44,279 nucleotides of DNA from Clostridia bacterium. GTDB taxonomy: Bacteria; CBDUZB01; JAGLHV01. Below the pieces are notes generated by a model. It did not search any database. It saw only the letters and a program-made list of their open reading frames with translations, and was not told the origin of the DNA. The position numbers were made by a program, and so were the translations under genes. The stretch covers positions 1-44,279 of the forward strand of contig DAOVVV010000023.1 in the NCBI GenBank assembly GCA_030637025.1, given 5' to 3'. Of this stretch, positions 7,287-23,454 are shown in pieces (position 1 is the first letter of the stretch; every line of letters starts with the position of its first letter).

Positions 7287-7359
7287 TGCCCCTAGCAGGA
7301 TTCGAACCTGCGCTCCTGGCTTCGGAGGCCAGTACTCTATCCAACTGAGCTATAGGGGC
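7287..7359 (-). tRNA. tRNA-Arg(CCG)
   Basis: Acceptor stem GCCCCTA/TAGGGGC, D arm GCTC-AGTTGGATA-GAGT, anticodon arm CTGGC-CTCCGAA-GCCAG, T arm GCAGG-TTCGAAT-CCTGC; CCA not encoded. Confidence 0.97.
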
Positions 7360-16383: not shown

Positions 16384-17115
16384 TTACTCTAAGAAATCCG
16401 ATGAATCAAAAACACAAACCCCGCGGGGCATTTTAAATTTAAAAATTTTTTCTTTTACTTTAGTATTAATTTTTACATTTAAAATATTTGAAATAATCAG
16501 CATTTCAACAGTCTCGACTTCTATTTTTTCCGGCAACCAGGTAAAATCCGAAACCCATAAAGTTATAGTAAAATTATCAACCTGAGAAGAAACTATTTTC
16601 AATAAATAAAAATCCTTTTGTTTCTTAAATAATATTACCTTTCCCGTTTCCACTAAATTTCTTACTGATGTTCCAAAACCCAAACCTAAAAATTCTCCAC
16701 CTAAACCTAACTTAAGTTTATCATCTTCTAATTTCTGTATACTAACTTGATTATATTCAGGTGAATAAATCCACAATTTTTTTCCGTCGGAAATAACTTT
16801 TTGTAAAATATTATCCTCATTATATATAAGGCCATAGATTTTCTTTGGTTTTTGAAAAACAAATTCCCCTTTTACCTTGTAGTTTTCTTCTGTTACTTTT
16901 ATATTTATTCTCTGATTGAAATCAAATTTAATATTTAAAATTTTAGTTTCGGCAATATCTATATGTTTTAGAACATCTTTTAAGGATAACTCCAACTCTT
17001 CAGCCAACAAAACAGATTTAATTCCTAAAAAAACAACAAACAAAAATAATAATTTATATAAAGTAAAAAATATCTTTAAAATATGAAATAATTTCGTTAG
17101 TTTATTATCTTTCAT
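16384..17115 (-). CDS. lolA: LolA-like outer-membrane lipoprotein carrier
   Basis: N-terminal hydrophobic signal, F.Q, KP, SDGKKLWIYSP..NQV, F.FKMP.GV; coupled to ftsK by a TAATG overlap. Confidence 0.75.
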   Translation of the reverse strand: MKDNKLTKLFHILKIFFTLYKLLFLFVVFLGIKSVLLAEELELSLKDVLKHIDIAETKILNIKFDFNQRINIKVTEENYKVKGEFVFQKPKKIYGLIYNEDNILQKVISDGKKLWIYSPEYNQVSIQKLEDDKLKLGLGGEFLGLGFGTSVRNLVETGKVILFKKQKDFYLLKIVSSQVDNFTITLWVSDFTWLPEKIEVETVEMLIISNILNVKINTKVKEKIFKFKMPRGVCVFDSSDFLE

Positions 17116-19280
17116 TAATTTCTCTTATAATCATCTCTATCTATTAAAATTTTTCGTGATTTACTGCTATCTATTAAAGAACTAATTATTCCTTCCGCCT
17201 CCATACTATCTATCAATTTAGCAGCTCTTATATAACCAATTCCTAATCTTCGTTGAAGAAAAGACGTAGAAGCCTGATTTGATTGAAATATTAAGTTAAG
17301 TGCTTTATCAAATAAAGGATCTTTTTGTTTTTTTTCATCTTCTTTATGTGCTGCATGGAAAAGATTGAAATCATAAGTTGGTTTTCTGCCTTCTTTTATA
17401 AATTCTACTATTTGTTTAGTTTCTTTATCTGAAATAAATGCTCCCTGTAATCTTACCGGTTTACTTGCGCCTGAAGACAAAAAAAGCATATCTCCTTTTC
17501 CAATCAAGTCTTCAGCACCGTTTACATCCAGAATAACCCGGGAATCTATTTTAGAAAGAACCTGAAAAGCAATACGCGAAGGAAGATTTGCTTTAATCAA
17601 TCCGGTAATAACATTTACCGAAGGCCTCTGCGTAGCTAAAATTAAATGAATTCCGACTGCCCGTCCCATTTGAGAAAGACGTATAATTGCTTCTTCTACT
17701 TCGCGGGAAGAAACCATCATTAAGTCAGCAAGCTCATCAATAATAACAACTAAATAGCATTCTTTTTCTATTTTATTTGAAGCAGAAGATTTTTTTGTTG
17801 CCAATTGATTATAAGATTCTATGTCACGAGCCATTACCTTAGAAAATTTTTCGTATCTTTCTTCCATTATTTTTATCAGGTTTTCAAGAGCTATGGTTGC
17901 TTGTTTCGGCTTACAAATTACCGGAACACAAAGATGGGGAATGCCGTCATAAATTGACATTTCCAACATTTTGGGGTCAATCAATACAAATTTTACCTCA
18001 TCCGGTCTGGCTTTATAAAGAATACTGGTAATAATTATCTTTAACCCTATACTTTTTCCAGAACCGGTAGCCCCGGCTATAAGTAAATGAGGCATAGAGG
18101 CTAGGTCAGCAATATAAGGGTGTCCGGAAACAGTTAATCCTAAACCTATAGTCAATTTTGAAGAGGCATTTTGGAATTTATCAGTCATCAATACTTTTTT
18201 CAAACCAACAAAGCTGCTTTTAAGATTCGGTATTTCTATCCCTACTGCTGCTTTACCCGGAATAGGTGCTAAAATTCTTACATTGCCTGATTTCATAGTT
18301 AAAGCAATATCATTGGATAAATTAAGAATACGGCTTATTTTTACACCAGGAGCAAGTTCAATTTCATAACGAGTAATTACAGGGCCCGGATTAATTTGTA
18401 CCACTTTAGCCCGAATATCAAAATTATTTAAAGTTCTTTCCAAAAGAAAAGCATTTTCTTTTAAATCTCCTTCCTTTGGTGTCGTTTTTGCTGCGGATGA
18501 AACAGCCAGAAGATCTAAAGAAGGAAATTTATATTCAACCGGACCCTGGGAAAAATGCTGATCTTTAGAGAAAAAATCTTTAAAGATTCCTTTTTTCTTT
18601 TCTTGATTTAAATATTTTTTGCTATTTAAAAATTTTTCTTTTTCATTGAATTGACCGGGAGAAAACTTATCACAATGCGTTGCTGTTTCTATCTTTATCT
18701 TTTCCCTGTTATCTTGAAATTTTTCTTTCATTCTAAAAAAGGGAAAAATTCCTTTTATTTTTTTTCTAATATAATTAAAAAAACGTAAAGGTTGTTTATT
18801 CAAAAACCTAATTAAAGAGAAACCTGTAGTTAAAATAATAGATATAATTAACACAGTAGCCAATAATAAATAACTTCCTATATATCCAAAACCTCCTACT
18901 AAAAGTTTCAGAAAATATTCTCCAACTGCTCCTCCGGCCATTTTAGATGAACCAAAAAAACTAAATAAAGAGCAGGTCCCAAATAAAAACAATATTATAC
19001 CAATAATTTTAACAGCTATTTTATCTATTTTTTCTCTTCTAAAAATATTGATTCCCACTAAAAACATAATCAAAGGTAAAAAATAACTTCCTGTTCCAAG
19101 ATATAAAATCAAATATTTAGCTAAAAATTCTCCGAACACACCAACATAACTAATTCTACCTGAAGAAATCAAACTCAATAAAATCAAAATAGCAAAAGCA
19201 AAAAAAACAATACCTACTATTTCAGATTTTCCTTCTTTTTCAAGCATAAAAAATAATTGATTATTTTTTTCCTTCTTCAT
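17115..19280 (-). CDS. ftsK: DNA translocase FtsK/SpoIIIE
   Basis: N-terminal TMs, PHLLIAGATGSGKS, IDELADLMM, LATQRPS, gamma domain LQRRL.IGY.RAA. Confidence 0.97.
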   Translation of the reverse strand: MKKEKNNQLFFMLEKEGKSEIVGIVFFAFAILILLSLISSGRISYVGVFGEFLAKYLILYLGTGSYFLPLIMFLVGINIFRREKIDKIAVKIIGIILFLFGTCSLFSFFGSSKMAGGAVGEYFLKLLVGGFGYIGSYLLLATVLIISIILTTGFSLIRFLNKQPLRFFNYIRKKIKGIFPFFRMKEKFQDNREKIKIETATHCDKFSPGQFNEKEKFLNSKKYLNQEKKKGIFKDFFSKDQHFSQGPVEYKFPSLDLLAVSSAAKTTPKEGDLKENAFLLERTLNNFDIRAKVVQINPGPVITRYEIELAPGVKISRILNLSNDIALTMKSGNVRILAPIPGKAAVGIEIPNLKSSFVGLKKVLMTDKFQNASSKLTIGLGLTVSGHPYIADLASMPHLLIAGATGSGKSIGLKIIITSILYKARPDEVKFVLIDPKMLEMSIYDGIPHLCVPVICKPKQATIALENLIKIMEERYEKFSKVMARDIESYNQLATKKSSASNKIEKECYLVVIIDELADLMMVSSREVEEAIIRLSQMGRAVGIHLILATQRPSVNVITGLIKANLPSRIAFQVLSKIDSRVILDVNGAEDLIGKGDMLFLSSGASKPVRLQGAFISDKETKQIVEFIKEGRKPTYDFNLFHAAHKEDEKKQKDPLFDKALNLIFQSNQASTSFLQRRLGIGYIRAAKLIDSMEAEGIISSLIDSSKSRKILIDRDDYKRN

Positions 19281-19317
19281 TAATTATCACCCGGATTATT
19301 TTTTTATCTTTCCTCTA

Positions 19318-20115
19318 CTATACACTTGCAATAACAATCAACCCTAAAATCCAACAATAATAACTAAACAAAATTAAATTCCTGTTTTTTAACAGTTGAA
19401 TTAATAACTTCAAGCTAATATAGCCAAAAACAAAAGCAAAAACCATTCCGGCTAAATATTGAAATAATAAAATCTCTTGTCCACTAAAGTCTAATTCCCT
19501 AAACTGAAGACAATTAGCTCCCAATATTGCCGGAAGCGCAAGTAAGAAAGAAAACCTTACTGTCTCTTCTCTTTTCCAGCCACAAAACAAACCCGCGCAA
19601 ATTGTTATACCAGAGCGGGAAATCCCGGGTAATATCGCTATTCCCTGCATTAATCCAACAAACAGAGCCTCTTTTATTGTTATTTCTAAAATATTCTTCC
19701 GATCTTTTTTTTTAGAAAATTTTTCTATCCCCCAAATTAAAGTTCCTGTTACCAAAAGTAAAACTGCTACTAAAGATATATTTTCAAAAACTTTTTGGAA
19801 ATAATCCTTAAAAAAAAGACCTATTACTGCCGTAGGTATAGACGCAATAAATAACAACCAAAAAGTACGGCTCCAAACGTTAGTTTTAAATTGTTTATAT
19901 TTTAGAAAATTTTTTAAAATTTGCCATATTTCATTTCGATACAAAATTATCACAACCAAGGCAGTACTGAAATGTAATAAAACATCAAATAATACCTGAG
20001 AAGATTTTATCCCTAAAAAATATTGCATAAAAACTAAATGAGCAGAACTGGAAATAGGTAAAAATTCGCTTATCCCCTGAGTCATTCCTAAAACAATTGA
20101 TTTAACAAAAGTCAT
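19318..20115 (-). CDS. uppP: undecaprenyl-diphosphate phosphatase (BacA)
   Basis: QG.SEFLPISSSAH, PGISRSG.TI, FSFLL. Confidence 0.95.
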   Translation of the reverse strand: MTFVKSIVLGMTQGISEFLPISSSAHLVFMQYFLGIKSSQVLFDVLLHFSTALVVIILYRNEIWQILKNFLKYKQFKTNVWSRTFWLLFIASIPTAVIGLFFKDYFQKVFENISLVAVLLLVTGTLIWGIEKFSKKKDRKNILEITIKEALFVGLMQGIAILPGISRSGITICAGLFCGWKREETVRFSFLLALPAILGANCLQFRELDFSGQEILLFQYLAGMVFAFVFGYISLKLLIQLLKNRNLILFSYYCWILGLIVIASV

Positions 20116-20183
20116 TAATTTCTCCCCACTTTGTCCCCGAATATATAGCTCTAATTATAACAAAAACTTCTCTTAAAAACAAT

Positions 20184-20223
20184 AAAAAAATACCTCCTAT
20201 TAACTCTTTTAACAGGAGGTATT
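20184..20223 (-). terminator. intrinsic terminator after the DUF2582 gene
   Basis: Minus strand AATACCTCCTGTTAA-AAGAG-TTAATAGGAGGTATT followed by a T run. Confidence 0.8.
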
Positions 20224-20240
20224 CAAACTAAAAAAATATT

Positions 20241-20438
20241 TTATTTTAATGAAATAGTATACTCTCTCTTTTGTTTTTGTATAATTACTTTGTCTTCTCT
20301 GGCAAGCCATCCAATAGCCATACAAATCAGGGTATTAGAAACTTTTAAATAACTTTTTAACCTCAAAATCGTAACTTCTCCATATTGATCTAAATAATCC
20401 CATATTCTACCAGCTACTTCTCCGACCATGTCAACCAT
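20241..20438 (-). CDS. small winged-helix protein, DUF2582 family
   Basis: VGE.AG.IW..L...GE and AIGWLAREDK match the family signature as recalled; AAGGGG RBS. Confidence 0.85.
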   Translation of the reverse strand: MVDMVGEVAGRIWDYLDQYGEVTILRLKSYLKVSNTLICMAIGWLAREDKVIIQKQKREYTISLK

Positions 20439-20468
20439 TTACAATATTCCCCTTTAATGTTGCAATTT

Positions 20469-20504
20469 AAAAAAAGGGTGGGAAACTCTTCCCACCCTTT
20501 TTTT
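20469..20504 (-). terminator. bidirectional-type intrinsic terminator hairpin between the Lys-rich gene and the DUF2582 gene
   Basis: A7-GGGTGGGAA-ACTC-TTCCCACCC-T7, a perfect 9-bp stem. Confidence 0.85.
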
Positions 20505-20522
20505 AAAGACATAAAAAATTTT

Positions 20523-20651
20523 TTACTTTTTTTTCTTTTTTACAACTTTCTTTTTTGCAACTTTCTTTTTTACAACTTTCTTTTTTACAACTTTCTTTTT
20601 TACAACTTTCTTTTTTGCAACTTTCTTTTTTGCTTTCTTCTTAACCACCAT
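20523..20651 (-). CDS. unannotated 42-aa lysine-rich histone-H1-like repeat protein
   Basis: MVVKKKA-KKKVA-KKKVV-KKKVV-KKKVV-KKKVA-KKKVV-KKKKK; encoded by 15-bp tandem repeats; GGAGGTG RBS 9 nt upstream; terminator downstream. Confidence 0.85.
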   Translation of the reverse strand: MVVKKKAKKKVAKKKVVKKKVVKKKVVKKKVAKKKVVKKKKK

Positions 20652-20702
20652 TTTTTTTACCACCTCCCTTTCATTTTTGTAAATTAAAATACTTACATTA
20701 TA

Positions 20703-20731
20703 ATTATTACCCTAAAAAATATTTCTGTCAA
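20703..20731 (-). promoter_or_regulatory. probable sigma70 promoter for the Lys-rich gene
   Basis: TTGACA (20731-20726), 17 nt, AATAAT; a perfect TATAAT lies 6 nt further downstream. Confidence 0.55.
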
Positions 20732-20837
20732 GAAAAAAATTCATTTTTTTATTTTTTTCTGTTAGACTCCACAAAAACAAAAAAGGAAATACCTAATTTA
20801 AAAATAAGATTACCGTCGACAAATCTTGCTTTTTATT

Positions 20838-21284
20838 TTATAAATAACAAACCGAAAACAATTCTTCTCCATATTTAACAGTCTTTCCATTTTCAACTAA
20901 CATTTGTACTATTTTACATTTTCTCTCTGCTTGAATCTCATTCATTACTTTCATCGCTTCAATAATACATATCGTTTCATCTTTTTCTACAATACTATTT
21001 ACTTCCACAAAGGGCGGAGATTCCGGCGAAGGACTTTGATAAAAAATACCCGGTATCGGAGATTTTATTACATCTGATTCCTTTTTTTTATCTTCCTCTT
21101 CAGAAGGAATCAAACTAACAGGTGATAAATATTCTTTTTCGTCCACCACTGTTTTTTCTTTTTTACTTCTTTCCTCGTTTTTTCTTTTTATTTTTATTTT
21201 ACAATTTTTTTCTTCAACTTCAATTTCCAACAAATCACTATTCACCATTAAATCATAAATTTTTTTTACTTCTTTAAACTCCAT
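20838..21284 (-). CDS. accB: biotin carboxyl carrier protein
   Basis: SP..G.FY.SPSP...PFV, IIEAMKVMNEI biotinylation motif; start set at MEFKEV behind the AAAGGAGA RBS (frame open to 21317). Confidence 0.92.
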   Translation of the reverse strand: MEFKEVKKIYDLMVNSDLLEIEVEEKNCKIKIKRKNEERSKKEKTVVDEKEYLSPVSLIPSEEEDKKKESDVIKSPIPGIFYQSPSPESPPFVEVNSIVEKDETICIIEAMKVMNEIQAERKCKIVQMLVENGKTVKYGEELFSVCYL

Positions 21285-21351
21285 ATCTCCTTTTTCCTTA
21301 CCCTTATTATTTTTCATTACAAAATAAACCTCTTTACAATTAATTTTATTT

Positions 21352-23454
21352 TTATTTACTATCTTCTTCTAAAACTGCTTTCCGTGATAAATTTATTCTT
21401 CCCTGGCTATCTATTTCCATTACTTTAACTGTAATTGCATCGCCTTCATTAACCACATCTTCAACTTTATTTACTCTTTTTCTATCTAACTTCGAAATAT
21501 GAACCAATCCTTCCTTCCCCGGAAATATTTCCACAAAAGCCCCAAAAGGTACTACACGCATAACTTTACCTTTATAAATCTTTCCTACTTCAGCATCCGC
21601 GGTTAAATTCTCAATTATTTTTCTAGCCTGGTCTACAGAAGAACTTTCAGCAGCAGAAATAAATATTTTTCCATCATCATCAATATTAATCTCTACATTT
21701 GTCTGTTCAGTTATTTTCCTGATTGTCTTTCCTCCGGCACCGATAACATCCCTAATTTTTTCCGGATTTATTTGTAAAATTACAATTTTAGGAGCATGAG
21801 GAGAAACTTCCTTTCTGGAATCACTTATTACTTGTTCCATTTGTTCTAAAATAAACAGTCTCCCTTTTTTTGCTTGTTGTATAACCTCACGTAAAATTTC
21901 CAGGCTAAGACCTTTTACTTTAATATCCATTTGTAAAGCCGTAACCCCTTTTCGCGATCCTGCCAATTTAAAATCCATATCACCTAAATGATCTTCTAAT
22001 CCTTGAATATCCGTAAGAACTCTAAATTTTTCTCCTTCCTTAATTAATCCCATAGCCACACCTGCCACCGGTGCAGAAATCGGAATTCCGGCATCCATCA
22101 AAGAAAGACTTCCTCCACAAACCGAAGCCATAGAAGAAGAACCGTTAGATTCTAAAATATCAGAAACAAGGCGTATAGTATAAGGAAATTTTTCATCTGA
22201 AGGCAATACAGATATCAAAGAACGTTCTGCCAATATCCCATGACCTATTTCTCTTCTCCCCGGTCCCCGTTCAGGTTTTACTTCTCCGGTACTAAAAGAA
22301 AGAAAATTGTAATGCAGCATAAACCTTTTCTTGTATTCTTTCTCTAATCCATCAACAATTTGCTTATCAGAACTAGTTCCTAAAGTAGTAACTACCAAAG
22401 CTTGCGTTTGCCCCCTAGTAAATAATCCCGAACCATGTACACGAGGCAAGATTCCTACTTTACAAGTAATAGGTCTTATTTCTTCCGTTTTTCTTCCGTC
22501 TAAGCGTTTTCCTTCTTCCAAAATTAATTTTCTTACACTAACAGACAACAATTCTTTTATTATTTTCCCAAGCAACCCGGAATTATCGCCTAAAATTTCT
22601 TTAAACTCAATTAAAGCTTTATCTTTTACCTCTTCTAATATTTTTTCCCTTTCTTTTTCATCCCCGTTTAAAACAGCATTATTGACATCTTCCCTGCAAA
22701 ATTCTGTTATTTTATTTTTATCTTCCTCGTTTAGAAAAATATTTTCTGTAAATTCTATTTTTTTCTTACCATATTCCCTTACAAATTCTTCTTCTTTTTC
22801 CACTATTACTTTTATATAAGAAGAAGCTAGTTCCAAAGCTTTAAATAAATCTTCTTCCGATACTTCCTGAGTAAAACCTTCCACCATAATAACATTTTCT
22901 TTACTCCCTGAAACAATAATATCCAGATCACTATTTTCCATTTCAGATAGAGTAGGATTTACCTTAAACTCTCCATCAATTCTTCCTATGCGTACTGCTG
23001 CAATGAGATTATCGAAAGGAATATCAGAAAGTCCAAGAGCAATAGAAGCTCCTATAATAGCCGGAACATCTCCATTATTTTCCTGGTCACAGGAAAGAAC
23101 CATTGCTATTATTTGTATTTTTCTATCTATCTGTTGAGGAAACAACGGCCTTACTGAACGATCAATCAACCTGGAAGTTAATATTTCTTTTTCTCTGGGT
23201 CTGCCTTCTCTCTTAAAAAATCCACCGGGAATCTTACCTGCAGCATAAGTTCTTTCTTTATAATCTACAAATAGAGGAAGAAAATCTAATTTTTCATCCT
23301 TTTCGAAAGATGTTGTTACCGTTACTAAAACTATCGTTTCACCGTATTGAACTAAAACAGAGCCACTGGATTGTTTAGCCAATTCCCCCGTTTTAATTAT
23401 TAAATCTTCTTTTCCTATCGTGAATTTCATTTCATTAACTTTTTCCATTTCCAT
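21352..23454 (-). CDS. pnp: polyribonucleotide nucleotidyltransferase
   Basis: AAGKIPGGFFKREG, HGSGLFTRGQTQ, ESNGSSSMAS, GDMDFK, KH and S1 domains. Confidence 0.99.
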   Translation of the reverse strand: MEMEKVNEMKFTIGKEDLIIKTGELAKQSSGSVLVQYGETIVLVTVTTSFEKDEKLDFLPLFVDYKERTYAAGKIPGGFFKREGRPREKEILTSRLIDRSVRPLFPQQIDRKIQIIAMVLSCDQENNGDVPAIIGASIALGLSDIPFDNLIAAVRIGRIDGEFKVNPTLSEMENSDLDIIVSGSKENVIMVEGFTQEVSEEDLFKALELASSYIKVIVEKEEEFVREYGKKKIEFTENIFLNEEDKNKITEFCREDVNNAVLNGDEKEREKILEEVKDKALIEFKEILGDNSGLLGKIIKELLSVSVRKLILEEGKRLDGRKTEEIRPITCKVGILPRVHGSGLFTRGQTQALVVTTLGTSSDKQIVDGLEKEYKKRFMLHYNFLSFSTGEVKPERGPGRREIGHGILAERSLISVLPSDEKFPYTIRLVSDILESNGSSSMASVCGGSLSLMDAGIPISAPVAGVAMGLIKEGEKFRVLTDIQGLEDHLGDMDFKLAGSRKGVTALQMDIKVKGLSLEILREVIQQAKKGRLFILEQMEQVISDSRKEVSPHAPKIVILQINPEKIRDVIGAGGKTIRKITEQTNVEINIDDDGKIFISAAESSSVDQARKIIENLTADAEVGKIYKGKVMRVVPFGAFVEIFPGKEGLVHISKLDRKRVNKVEDVVNEGDAITVKVMEIDSQGRINLSRKAVLEEDSK

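Follow-up and report, generated by a model that had tools for sequence, protein, structure and literature searches.

A polylysine mini-gene beside a DUF2582 winged-helix gene in a Clostridia bacterium: a candidate polyanion-binding peptide and a neighbor from a conserved housekeeping block

Why does a gene for a lysine-rich peptide of only 42 amino acids (aa) stand directly in front of a gene for a small winged-helix protein of the DUF2582 family? The question is raised by a 44,279-nucleotide (nt) stretch of DNA from a Clostridia bacterium (assembly GCA_030637025.1, contig DAOVVV010000023.1, positions 1 to 44,279; the whole stretch is called the window in the following). Between accB and uppP, the initial annotation had noted a promoter, a Shine-Dalgarno (SD) sequence, a Lys-rich open reading frame (ORF), a hairpin, a DUF2582 ORF and a terminator, and all of these elements are present at the coordinates detailed below. 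Linker histone H1 combines a winged-helix domain with a Lys-rich disordered tail, of which the long one is C-terminal, and the elements had accordingly been interpreted as a single inserted unit supplying both H1-like parts as separate polypeptides. We favor, with moderate confidence, another reading: the Lys-rich gene would encode a polycation resembling Hc2 and H1 tails, which binds polyanions non-specifically, and it would be paired with a conserved winged-helix gene through shared ancestry in a gene block. The two genes would, thus, be separately insulated and neighbors by descent.

The Lys-rich ORF (20523..20651, minus strand; ATG at 20651, stop at 20523) encodes a peptide of the form (KKKVV/KKKVA)n, which consists of 26 Lys, 12 Val, 3 Ala and 1 Met (62% lysine) and contains no acidic residue. 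The ORF listing starts this frame at a GTG within the SD sequence and, therefore, gives 46 instead of 42 aa. The pentamers are encoded by a 15-nt tandem repeat (20532..20631, minus strand; Tandem Repeats Finder score 186, 6.7 copies, 96% matches). Among the 17068 ORFs of at least 25 aa in the 2.36-Mb genome (33.5% GC), this ORF has the highest Lys content (0.61), and a Lys fraction of at least 0.40 is reached by only four ORFs. An SD sequence, GGGAGGTGG (20660..20668, minus strand), was read directly from the sequence. Farther upstream, a sigma-70-type promoter-like site was found (20703..20731, minus strand; TTGACA, 17 nt, AATAAT; 11/12 matches), which is the best of 10 sites in a consensus scan of positions 19900-21400, while the number of sites itself is not significant (6.3 +/- 2.2 in shuffled sequences).

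Three further species of the genus were compared. Two of them (G001 and G003) are informative for the polylysine gene; the contig of the third (G002) stops 35 nt past the DUF2582 start and is uninformative in this respect. Both informative congeners carry the ORF at the same site, with 37 and 32 codons compared to 42 in the window, and in the alignment these differences appear as gaps of 15 and 30 nt that preserve the frame. The DNA alignment shows that the GAGGTGGT core of the SD sequence, ATG, stop codon, −35 and −10 elements and the hairpin behind the ORF are all kept; both congeners match the window exactly at and around the −35 hexamer and have a perfect TATAAT as −10 element. Substitutions at codon positions 1/2/3 amount to 1/3/14 between the window and G003 (38 codons), 1/1/7 between the window and G001 (33 codons) and 0/2/8 between G003 and G001 (33 codons). 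This period-3 pattern points to a coding sequence and is unexpected for a non-coding repeat. Judged from these sequence comparisons, we consider it very probable that the Lys-rich ORF represents a real, unusual mini-gene, and its earlier description as a gene of the H1-tail type is borne out by an Hc2- and H1-tail-like composition, strong expression signals and the coding substitution pattern. Conversely, it is hardly plausible that the ORF is an untranslated, A-rich 15-nt intergenic repeat or a small RNA which is open by chance. A low-complexity tandem repeat in a genome of low GC content and a peptide without a scoring homolog would fit such a view, but the substitutions follow the codon, insertions and deletions occur in multiples of 15 nt only, SD, ATG and stop are retained, and the same peptide motif is written with AAG codons at a locus of 69% GC (described below).

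Public RNA contigs were considered as evidence of expression and discarded. They cover only the repeat (bins 20505-20666), mostly with less than 95% likeness, and continue into unrelated sequence (two RNA runs among 15 listed); based on the low likeness and the unrelated extensions, they derive from Lys-rich genes of other organisms. Concerning assemblies, Logan contigs of run X1 stop at 20561 and restart at 20602, inside the 15-nt repeat, and the G002 contig C28 (locus L004) ends just short of the polylysine gene. Polylysine ORFs in two unrelated genomes (G087 and G140) are likewise cut by contig ends. Polylysine genes are likely under-represented in metagenome-assembled genomes (MAGs), since assemblies break in or beside such repeats.

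Databases were searched for relatives of the peptide. No Pfam family at E <= 0.1 and no NCBIfam family matched the ORF, and a protein search with the peptide returned 40 candidates, none of them at E <= 0.01; protein searches are blind to this peptide because of composition correction. At the DNA level, the pattern (KKK[AV][AV])x3 was found in 8 of 301 genomes, three of this genus and five unrelated ones, and the reversed control yielded none. One unrelated genome (G146) encodes a stand-alone polylysine ORF of 44 aa with an AGGAGG SD sequence (L099, 1456-1590, plus strand) and also a SWIB-domain protein (PF02201, E 1.4e-28) with a (KKKVA)n N-terminal tail (L094, 1495-1869, plus strand), the latter scoring 19.1 bits against the HC2 profile (PF07382), for which the cut-off is 40. 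Another one (G247) has a 24-aa polylysine ORF with AAG codons at the 69% GC locus mentioned above. In G262, a Cys-motif protein with about 100 aa has the motif as its body, and in G087 and G140 it lies in the truncated ORFs. Downstream of the G140 ORF, a basic protein of 78 aa without a Pfam family is encoded (L095, 1058-1291, minus strand), which is built from two internal repeats (GYLYF..D..GDIS...M.RGRK). In the Atlas, 30 neighbors of the window peptide at >= 0.9 are all unnamed clusters, the three best listed having 34-39 aa; among clusters with a Pfam family, the nearest one (0.89) has HC2 on 21% of its members and is no more than a lead.

Several known proteins resemble the peptide. Chlamydial Hc2 contains Lys-rich pentamer repeats, the number of which varies between strains, and binds DNA, as described in an excerpt of PMC2848022. 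The window peptide is similar to Hc2 (hctB, PF07382) in that it likewise consists of Lys-rich pentamers, here encoded by a 15-nt repeat, and its length differs between species of one genus (32, 37 and 42 aa in three species). It differs in size (42 aa vs. 165-237 aa of Hc2), in having little besides pentamers, and in the lack of an HC2 profile match at E <= 0.1. By analogy, the closest known design of the polylysine peptide would be chlamydial Hc2, shrunk to 42 residues. Lys-rich low-complexity segments also occur in AlgP of Pseudomonas and DdbA of Streptomyces, according to the accessible parts of PMC9239181 and PMC3643593. AlgP and DdbA, as far as these excerpts describe them, and SWIB proteins such as that of G146 combine a Lys-rich segment with a small globular domain, yet they are single polypeptides, unlike the two-gene arrangement of the window. 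Further, since AlgP is tied to the spacing of polyphosphate granules in the same excerpts, such tails need not act on DNA.

Taken in this light, the Lys-rich gene is predicted to give a 42-residue, acid-free, intrinsically disordered polycation with a charge of about +26. Most likely, it would coat or condense polyanions non-specifically, DNA in the first place and possibly RNA, ribosomes or polyphosphate, and its mode of action may be modeled on Hc2, the C-terminal tail of H1 and protamines. The number of pentamers would drift by slippage on the 15-nt repeat, which would give the lengths of 32, 37 and 42 aa within the genus. As two HU genes are encoded by the same genome, the peptide would supplement the usual nucleoid proteins and not replace them. 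A non-nucleoid role, i.e., an RNA- or ribosome-associated mini-protein unrelated to DUF2582, is in our view unlikely. It would suit the position of the gene inside a supercluster for translation and RNA processing (proS-rimP-nusA-infB-rbfA-...-rpsO-pnp-accB), its expression signals, which resemble those of ribosomal protein genes, and a genome already equipped with two HU proteins; mycobacterial bS22 and bL37, with about 24-33 aa and rich in Lys and Arg, would be the proteins to compare. On the other hand, a pure repeat of variable copy number is a poor fit to a fixed binding site on the ribosome, G146 has the same motif joined to the chromatin-associated SWIB domain, and the nearest family-bearing Atlas cluster is, if weakly, HC2.

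The second gene of the pair was assigned to DUF2582 (PF10771). Its ORF of 65 aa (20241..20438, minus strand; Pfam E 6.8e-18) matches profile positions 4-64 of 65 with 65 bits at a cut-off of 24.2 and represents the only DUF2582 copy in the genome. An SD-like sequence, AAAGGGGAA (20447..20455, minus strand), was read from the sequence 9 nt ahead of the start codon, and the congeners have AGAGGAG at this site. The AlphaFold2 model, based on a 74-row alignment, shows a minimal winged helix of the order H-H-H-E-E (predicted local distance difference test, pLDDT, of 95.1). Sequence matches were obtained to PDB entries 2L02 (2.9e-7) and 2L01 (5.7e-5). These two (BT2368 and BVU3908, respectively) share the Pfam family and the fold of the window protein, but they are structural-genomics entries titled "uncharacterized protein" without a function. 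In Foldseek, 2L01 ranked first with a template modeling (TM) score of 0.86, followed by HlyU/ArsR, MarR, 2L02 (TM 0.84), AspA, CadC, SSV1 F-112 and Zalpha domains. The exhaustive VIA search placed two Zalpha (Z-DNA/Z-RNA-binding) domains, those of PKZ (Z 11.3) and ZBP1 (11.2), at the top, tied with 2L02 (11.0) and 2L01 (10.9), and listed 169 chains at Z >= 8. With so many chains, the match is one to a common minimal fold, and the modeled protein is best described as a generic minimal winged helix. Membership in the Zalpha group is not claimed; the most conserved DUF2582 positions are G6, A9, G10, W13, L16 and the motif GWLAREDK at the end of helix 3, and this motif presumably differs from the Zalpha recognition set.

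The initial annotation had suggested a comparison with the globular domain of H1. No H1/H5 entry is among the best 50 matches of either Foldseek or VIA, which is still compatible with a general winged-helix similarity, and the Linker_histone profile gave no match for the 65-aa protein, PF10771 being the sole family that Pfam returned for it at E <= 0.1. The domain carries almost no net charge, and GWLAREDK includes two acidic residues, which does not favor a role as the DNA-binding half of a histone-like pair. Regarding the literature, a full-text search retrieved no mention of "DUF2582", and none of the matches listed for "PF10771" treats the family itself. C-terminal winged helices of DprA match PF10771 by HHsearch, according to the accessible portion of a preprint whose title states that DprA recruits ComM (bioRxiv 10.1101/2024.10.21.619469). 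From this portion and by analogy, the fold plausibly serves protein binding as well as nucleic-acid binding. A complex prediction of DUF2582 with the peptide scored 0.00 against a mark of 0.32, with a pLDDT below 50 for the partner, and counts neither as support nor as counter-evidence.

Where DUF2582 is encoded says more about its history. In the window, it belongs to a conserved block, pnp-accB-DUF2582-(spoVG)-(uppP)-ftsK (17115-23454), with accB (Biotin_lipoyl; 20838-21317, minus strand) upstream and uppP (BacA; 19318-20115, minus strand) downstream. A Biotin_lipoyl gene directly upstream of DUF2582 on the same strand was found in eight surveyed loci (L009-L014, L023 and L049), and the genes downstream of DUF2582 in block loci encode BacA, SpoVG or FtsK. 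Using tblastn with pnp, accB, uppP and ftsK of the window, the block pnp-accB-DUF2582-(uppP)-ftsK was also detected in G140 (L104), whereas G011 (L006) has it without accB and uppP. The block is, thus, common to this genus, several MAGs labeled Elusimicrobia and other deep lineages. Only two of the roughly seven lineages sharing it hold a polylysine gene in the spacer between accB and DUF2582. The claim of a single inserted unit was consequently dropped, as DUF2582 sits in the conserved block at about 12 loci from several lineages without a Lys-rich gene. Judged by gene order, DUF2582 is an old resident of a housekeeping block, ancestral at this site and no member of a cassette. Its product would be a minimal winged helix of three helices and two strands, and the accB/DUF2582 spacer is occupied by the polylysine gene solely in this genus and in one further lineage.

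In the window, the block is preceded by a housekeeping array (proS-rimP-nusA-infB-rbfA-DHH-ribF-rpsO-pnp) and continues into ftsK-lolA-rodZ-(radical-SAM/TRAM methylthiotransferase, miaB/rimO-like)-pgsA-recA, all on the minus strand. This strand also encodes 44 of the 47 greedy ORFs of at least 70 aa in window positions 1-44279; the plus strand has the other three, among them one that reads the Lys-rich repeat in antisense. Besides a tRNA (7287-7359, minus strand), no other Rfam family reached the gathering score in the window.

How often does DUF2582 have a polylysine neighbor? We surveyed 87 loci on genome contigs (the best 80 of 519 relatives and 7 further ones) as well as 80 loci from metagenomes, of which 69 extend upstream by 300 nt or more. 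The genome contigs were scanned for any ORF of at least 12 aa containing 8 or more Lys within 15 residues. Among the 87 loci, true polylysine neighbors are confined to the genus of the window (L003 and L005, the latter identical to L008) and to one further locus, L009; in the 80 metagenome loci, no polylysine ORF was found next to DUF2582. In total, 163 of 167 loci lack a polylysine neighbor and two lineages have one, so that the proximity of small Lys-rich ORFs to DUF2582, proposed in the initial annotation, applies to these two lineages and not to the family at large. In the reverse direction, a profile search showed that PF10771 is absent from four of the five unrelated polylysine genomes, including G146 with its tailed SWIB protein and 44-aa ORF; in the fifth, G140, the polylysine ORF and DUF2582 are on different contigs. 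We infer that there is no obligate partnership between the polylysine peptide and DUF2582.

The remaining Lys-rich matches of the survey either result from reading rpmF out of frame or are located at a distance of about 2-3 kb. The first kind includes the Lys-rich ORFs close to DUF2582 in loci labeled Gastranaerophilales, which were discarded. In these loci (L059, L060, L071, L077, L079 and L087), DUF2582 lies between leuD and rpmF, and the ORFs after rpmF are plsX- and fabD-like (named by eye). The L32 proteins encoded there have 85-152 aa, but the L32p profile spans residues 2-51 only; the remainder comprises Lys/Glu-rich C-terminal extensions, the out-of-frame readings of which mimic polylysine ORFs. 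In L153 and L156, which have identical sequence, an upstream ORF of 116 aa is mildly basic without a polylysine repeat and was not counted.

Basic segments can also be attached to DUF2582 itself. The architecture set comprised 156 proteins, i.e., the best 150 representatives of 718 matches and 6 from a search named "longer". Of these, 84 are single-domain proteins without and 41 with a tail of at least 20 aa, and 31 have two to four DUF2582 domains in tandem. The tandem proteins include P0007 (309 aa), P0014 (237 aa) and P0154 (311 aa) in addition to 28 two-domain proteins, an architecture which recalls the paired Zalpha/Zbeta domains. Only 8 of the 51 tails of at least 20 aa pass the thresholds for a basic tail (K >= 0.15 and net charge >= 0.12), and basic-tail fusions are a small minority. 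Nevertheless, the fusions of Lys-rich segments to DUF2582 that had been predicted do exist: N-terminal Lys/Ala/Pro/Ser-rich tails were found in a seven-member subclade as well as in P0123 and P0156, and P0128 has such a tail at its C-terminus. In a quick tree, the seven tailed members (P0146, P0002, P0136, P0005, P0006, P0003 and P0004) group with a support of 94 (Shimodaira-Hasegawa-like approximate likelihood ratio test, SH-aLRT), and P0123, P0156 and P0128 are placed outside this group.

At the transcript level, a hairpin separates the two genes (20466..20507, minus strand; −27.5 kcal/mol, z −5.66), and none of 200 shuffled sequences folds as well. It has a GC-rich core of 9 bp (GGGTGGGAA/TTCCCACCC) with a 4-nt loop, is flanked by A7 and U7, and can, therefore, be read as a terminator in both directions. 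In G001 and G003, the stem is kept through a two-sided paired change, whereas the loop is variable. The terminator scan overlooked this hairpin, as its U run pairs with the upstream A7. A second hairpin follows DUF2582 (20188..20224, minus strand; 16-pair stem and T run, −20.1 kcal/mol, z −5.70); it was reported by the scan, and again none of 200 shuffled sequences folds as well. Both hairpins combine a GC-rich stem-loop with a U run and are predicted to be intrinsic terminators. The distance from the polylysine stop codon to the DUF2582 start is 84 nt, of which about 40 nt remain after the hairpin, and neither sequence inspection nor the congener alignment revealed a credible promoter in these 40 nt. 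Because of this short distance and the lack of a recognizable promoter, DUF2582 is probably transcribed by read-through of the hairpin. For uppP, a promoter-like site of its own was found (20154..20182, minus strand; TTGTTT, 17 nt, extended −10 TGtTATAAT), which is conserved in G003 and G002 and marks uppP as a separate unit; the consensus scan had omitted it since its −35 hexamer has only 3/6 matches.

A short ORF rich in a single amino acid, a terminator hairpin and a promoterless gene resemble, in this order, the layout of classical attenuators. The polylysine ORF might accordingly be a cis-acting leader peptide, with ribosomes stalling or sliding on AAA/AAG codons and thereby tuning the hairpin and setting the expression of DUF2582. 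That L009 has the same layout speaks for this idea, which we nevertheless consider quite improbable. When the 262 nt of leader, ORF and spacer (20439-20700) were folded, the hairpin was the sole stable element, the ORF was essentially unstructured and no competing antiterminator appeared in this fold. In addition, the stop codon lies 27 nt ahead of the GC core of the hairpin, DUF2582 has no link to lysine metabolism, and equivalent ORFs of other genomes either stand alone or are joined to domains, which implies that they act as proteins.

The rival which deserves the closest look is the proposal of a bipartite linker-histone analog. Here, the peptide and DUF2582 would cooperate on DNA, with the tail provided in trans in this genus and fused elsewhere; the winged helix would position the pair and the peptide would neutralize charge. 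Four observations speak for it and weigh against mere neighborhood by descent. First, L009 belongs to a deeply diverged lineage (DUF2582 54% and pnp 58% identical) and repeats both the site and the layout of promoter, SD, ORF and hairpin: its accB/DUF2582 spacer contains a (KKKVA)n ORF of 23 aa with a TTGACA-type promoter-like site and an SD sequence, followed by a hairpin of −33 kcal/mol. Second, this ORF is the only (KKKxx)n match of its genome, so that the same order of genes is found in two deep lineages with only one such gene found in each. Third, the Lys/Ala/Pro-rich tails of the subclade, P0123 and P0156 precede the domain, just as the polylysine gene precedes DUF2582 here, and may be taken as Rosetta stone-type evidence for cooperation, to which the C-terminal tail of P0128 can be added. 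Finally, as no obvious DUF2582 promoter follows the hairpin, both genes may share a transcript.

On balance, however, we regard such a two-part module as doubtful. The pairing is rare, given the 163 loci without a polylysine neighbor and the polylysine ORFs occurring without or unlinked to DUF2582 in other genomes; more than half of the DUF2582 proteins (84/156) are single-domain proteins without a tail of at least 20 aa; a hairpin of terminator grade separates the genes; and the fold is generic. Likeness to H1/H5 exists by analogy only, namely in the combination of a winged helix and a Lys-rich disordered segment. In contrast to H1/H5, the winged helix of the window is DUF2582 and not Linker_histone, the tail is encoded by a separate gene beyond a stop codon, the spacer and a terminator-like hairpin, and the fused DUF2582 forms, which are known from other lineages only, mostly carry the tail at the N-terminus, whereas the long tail of H1 is C-terminal. 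The shared site in L009 may also be plain inheritance. A search for two pentamers plus KKK, the pattern applied to the L009 group, found nothing in the genomes of L010, L011, L013 and L014 (completeness not given), and in a tree of concatenated pnp, ftsK, accB and uppP, in which L104 and L006 are about half complete, the branches relating the window, L009, L010-13 and L104 have a support of 57-66. Both one ancient gain of the polylysine gene with losses and two independent gains are possible from these sequences. Of the two-part module proposed at the outset, the tailed DUF2582 proteins and the L009 layout stand as supporting points, while the rarity of the pairing, the terminator-grade hairpin and the generic fold do not bear it out.

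If the bipartite analog were true nonetheless, it would provide a first function for DUF2582 and a new bacterial chromatin module. Under the interpretation we prefer, a polyanion-binding peptide next to a conserved winged-helix gene, the peptide itself gains weight. Stand-alone (KKKVA)n mini-proteins of 23-46 residues escape routine annotation, as they are too short and repetitive for it, yet they appear repeatedly in scattered bacterial lineages and have strong expression signals. In case they coat DNA or RNA, they would represent components of nucleoids or ribonucleoproteins which have been overlooked as a class, and the shortest relatives-by-design of Hc2 and H1 tails. For DUF2582, a family with solved structures yet no known function, two leads emerge: a stable address, pnp-accB-DUF2582-uppP-ftsK, beside the gene of the DNA translocase FtsK, and basic tails, with which the family is recurrently associated. 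Each of them offers a testable entry point to what this family does.

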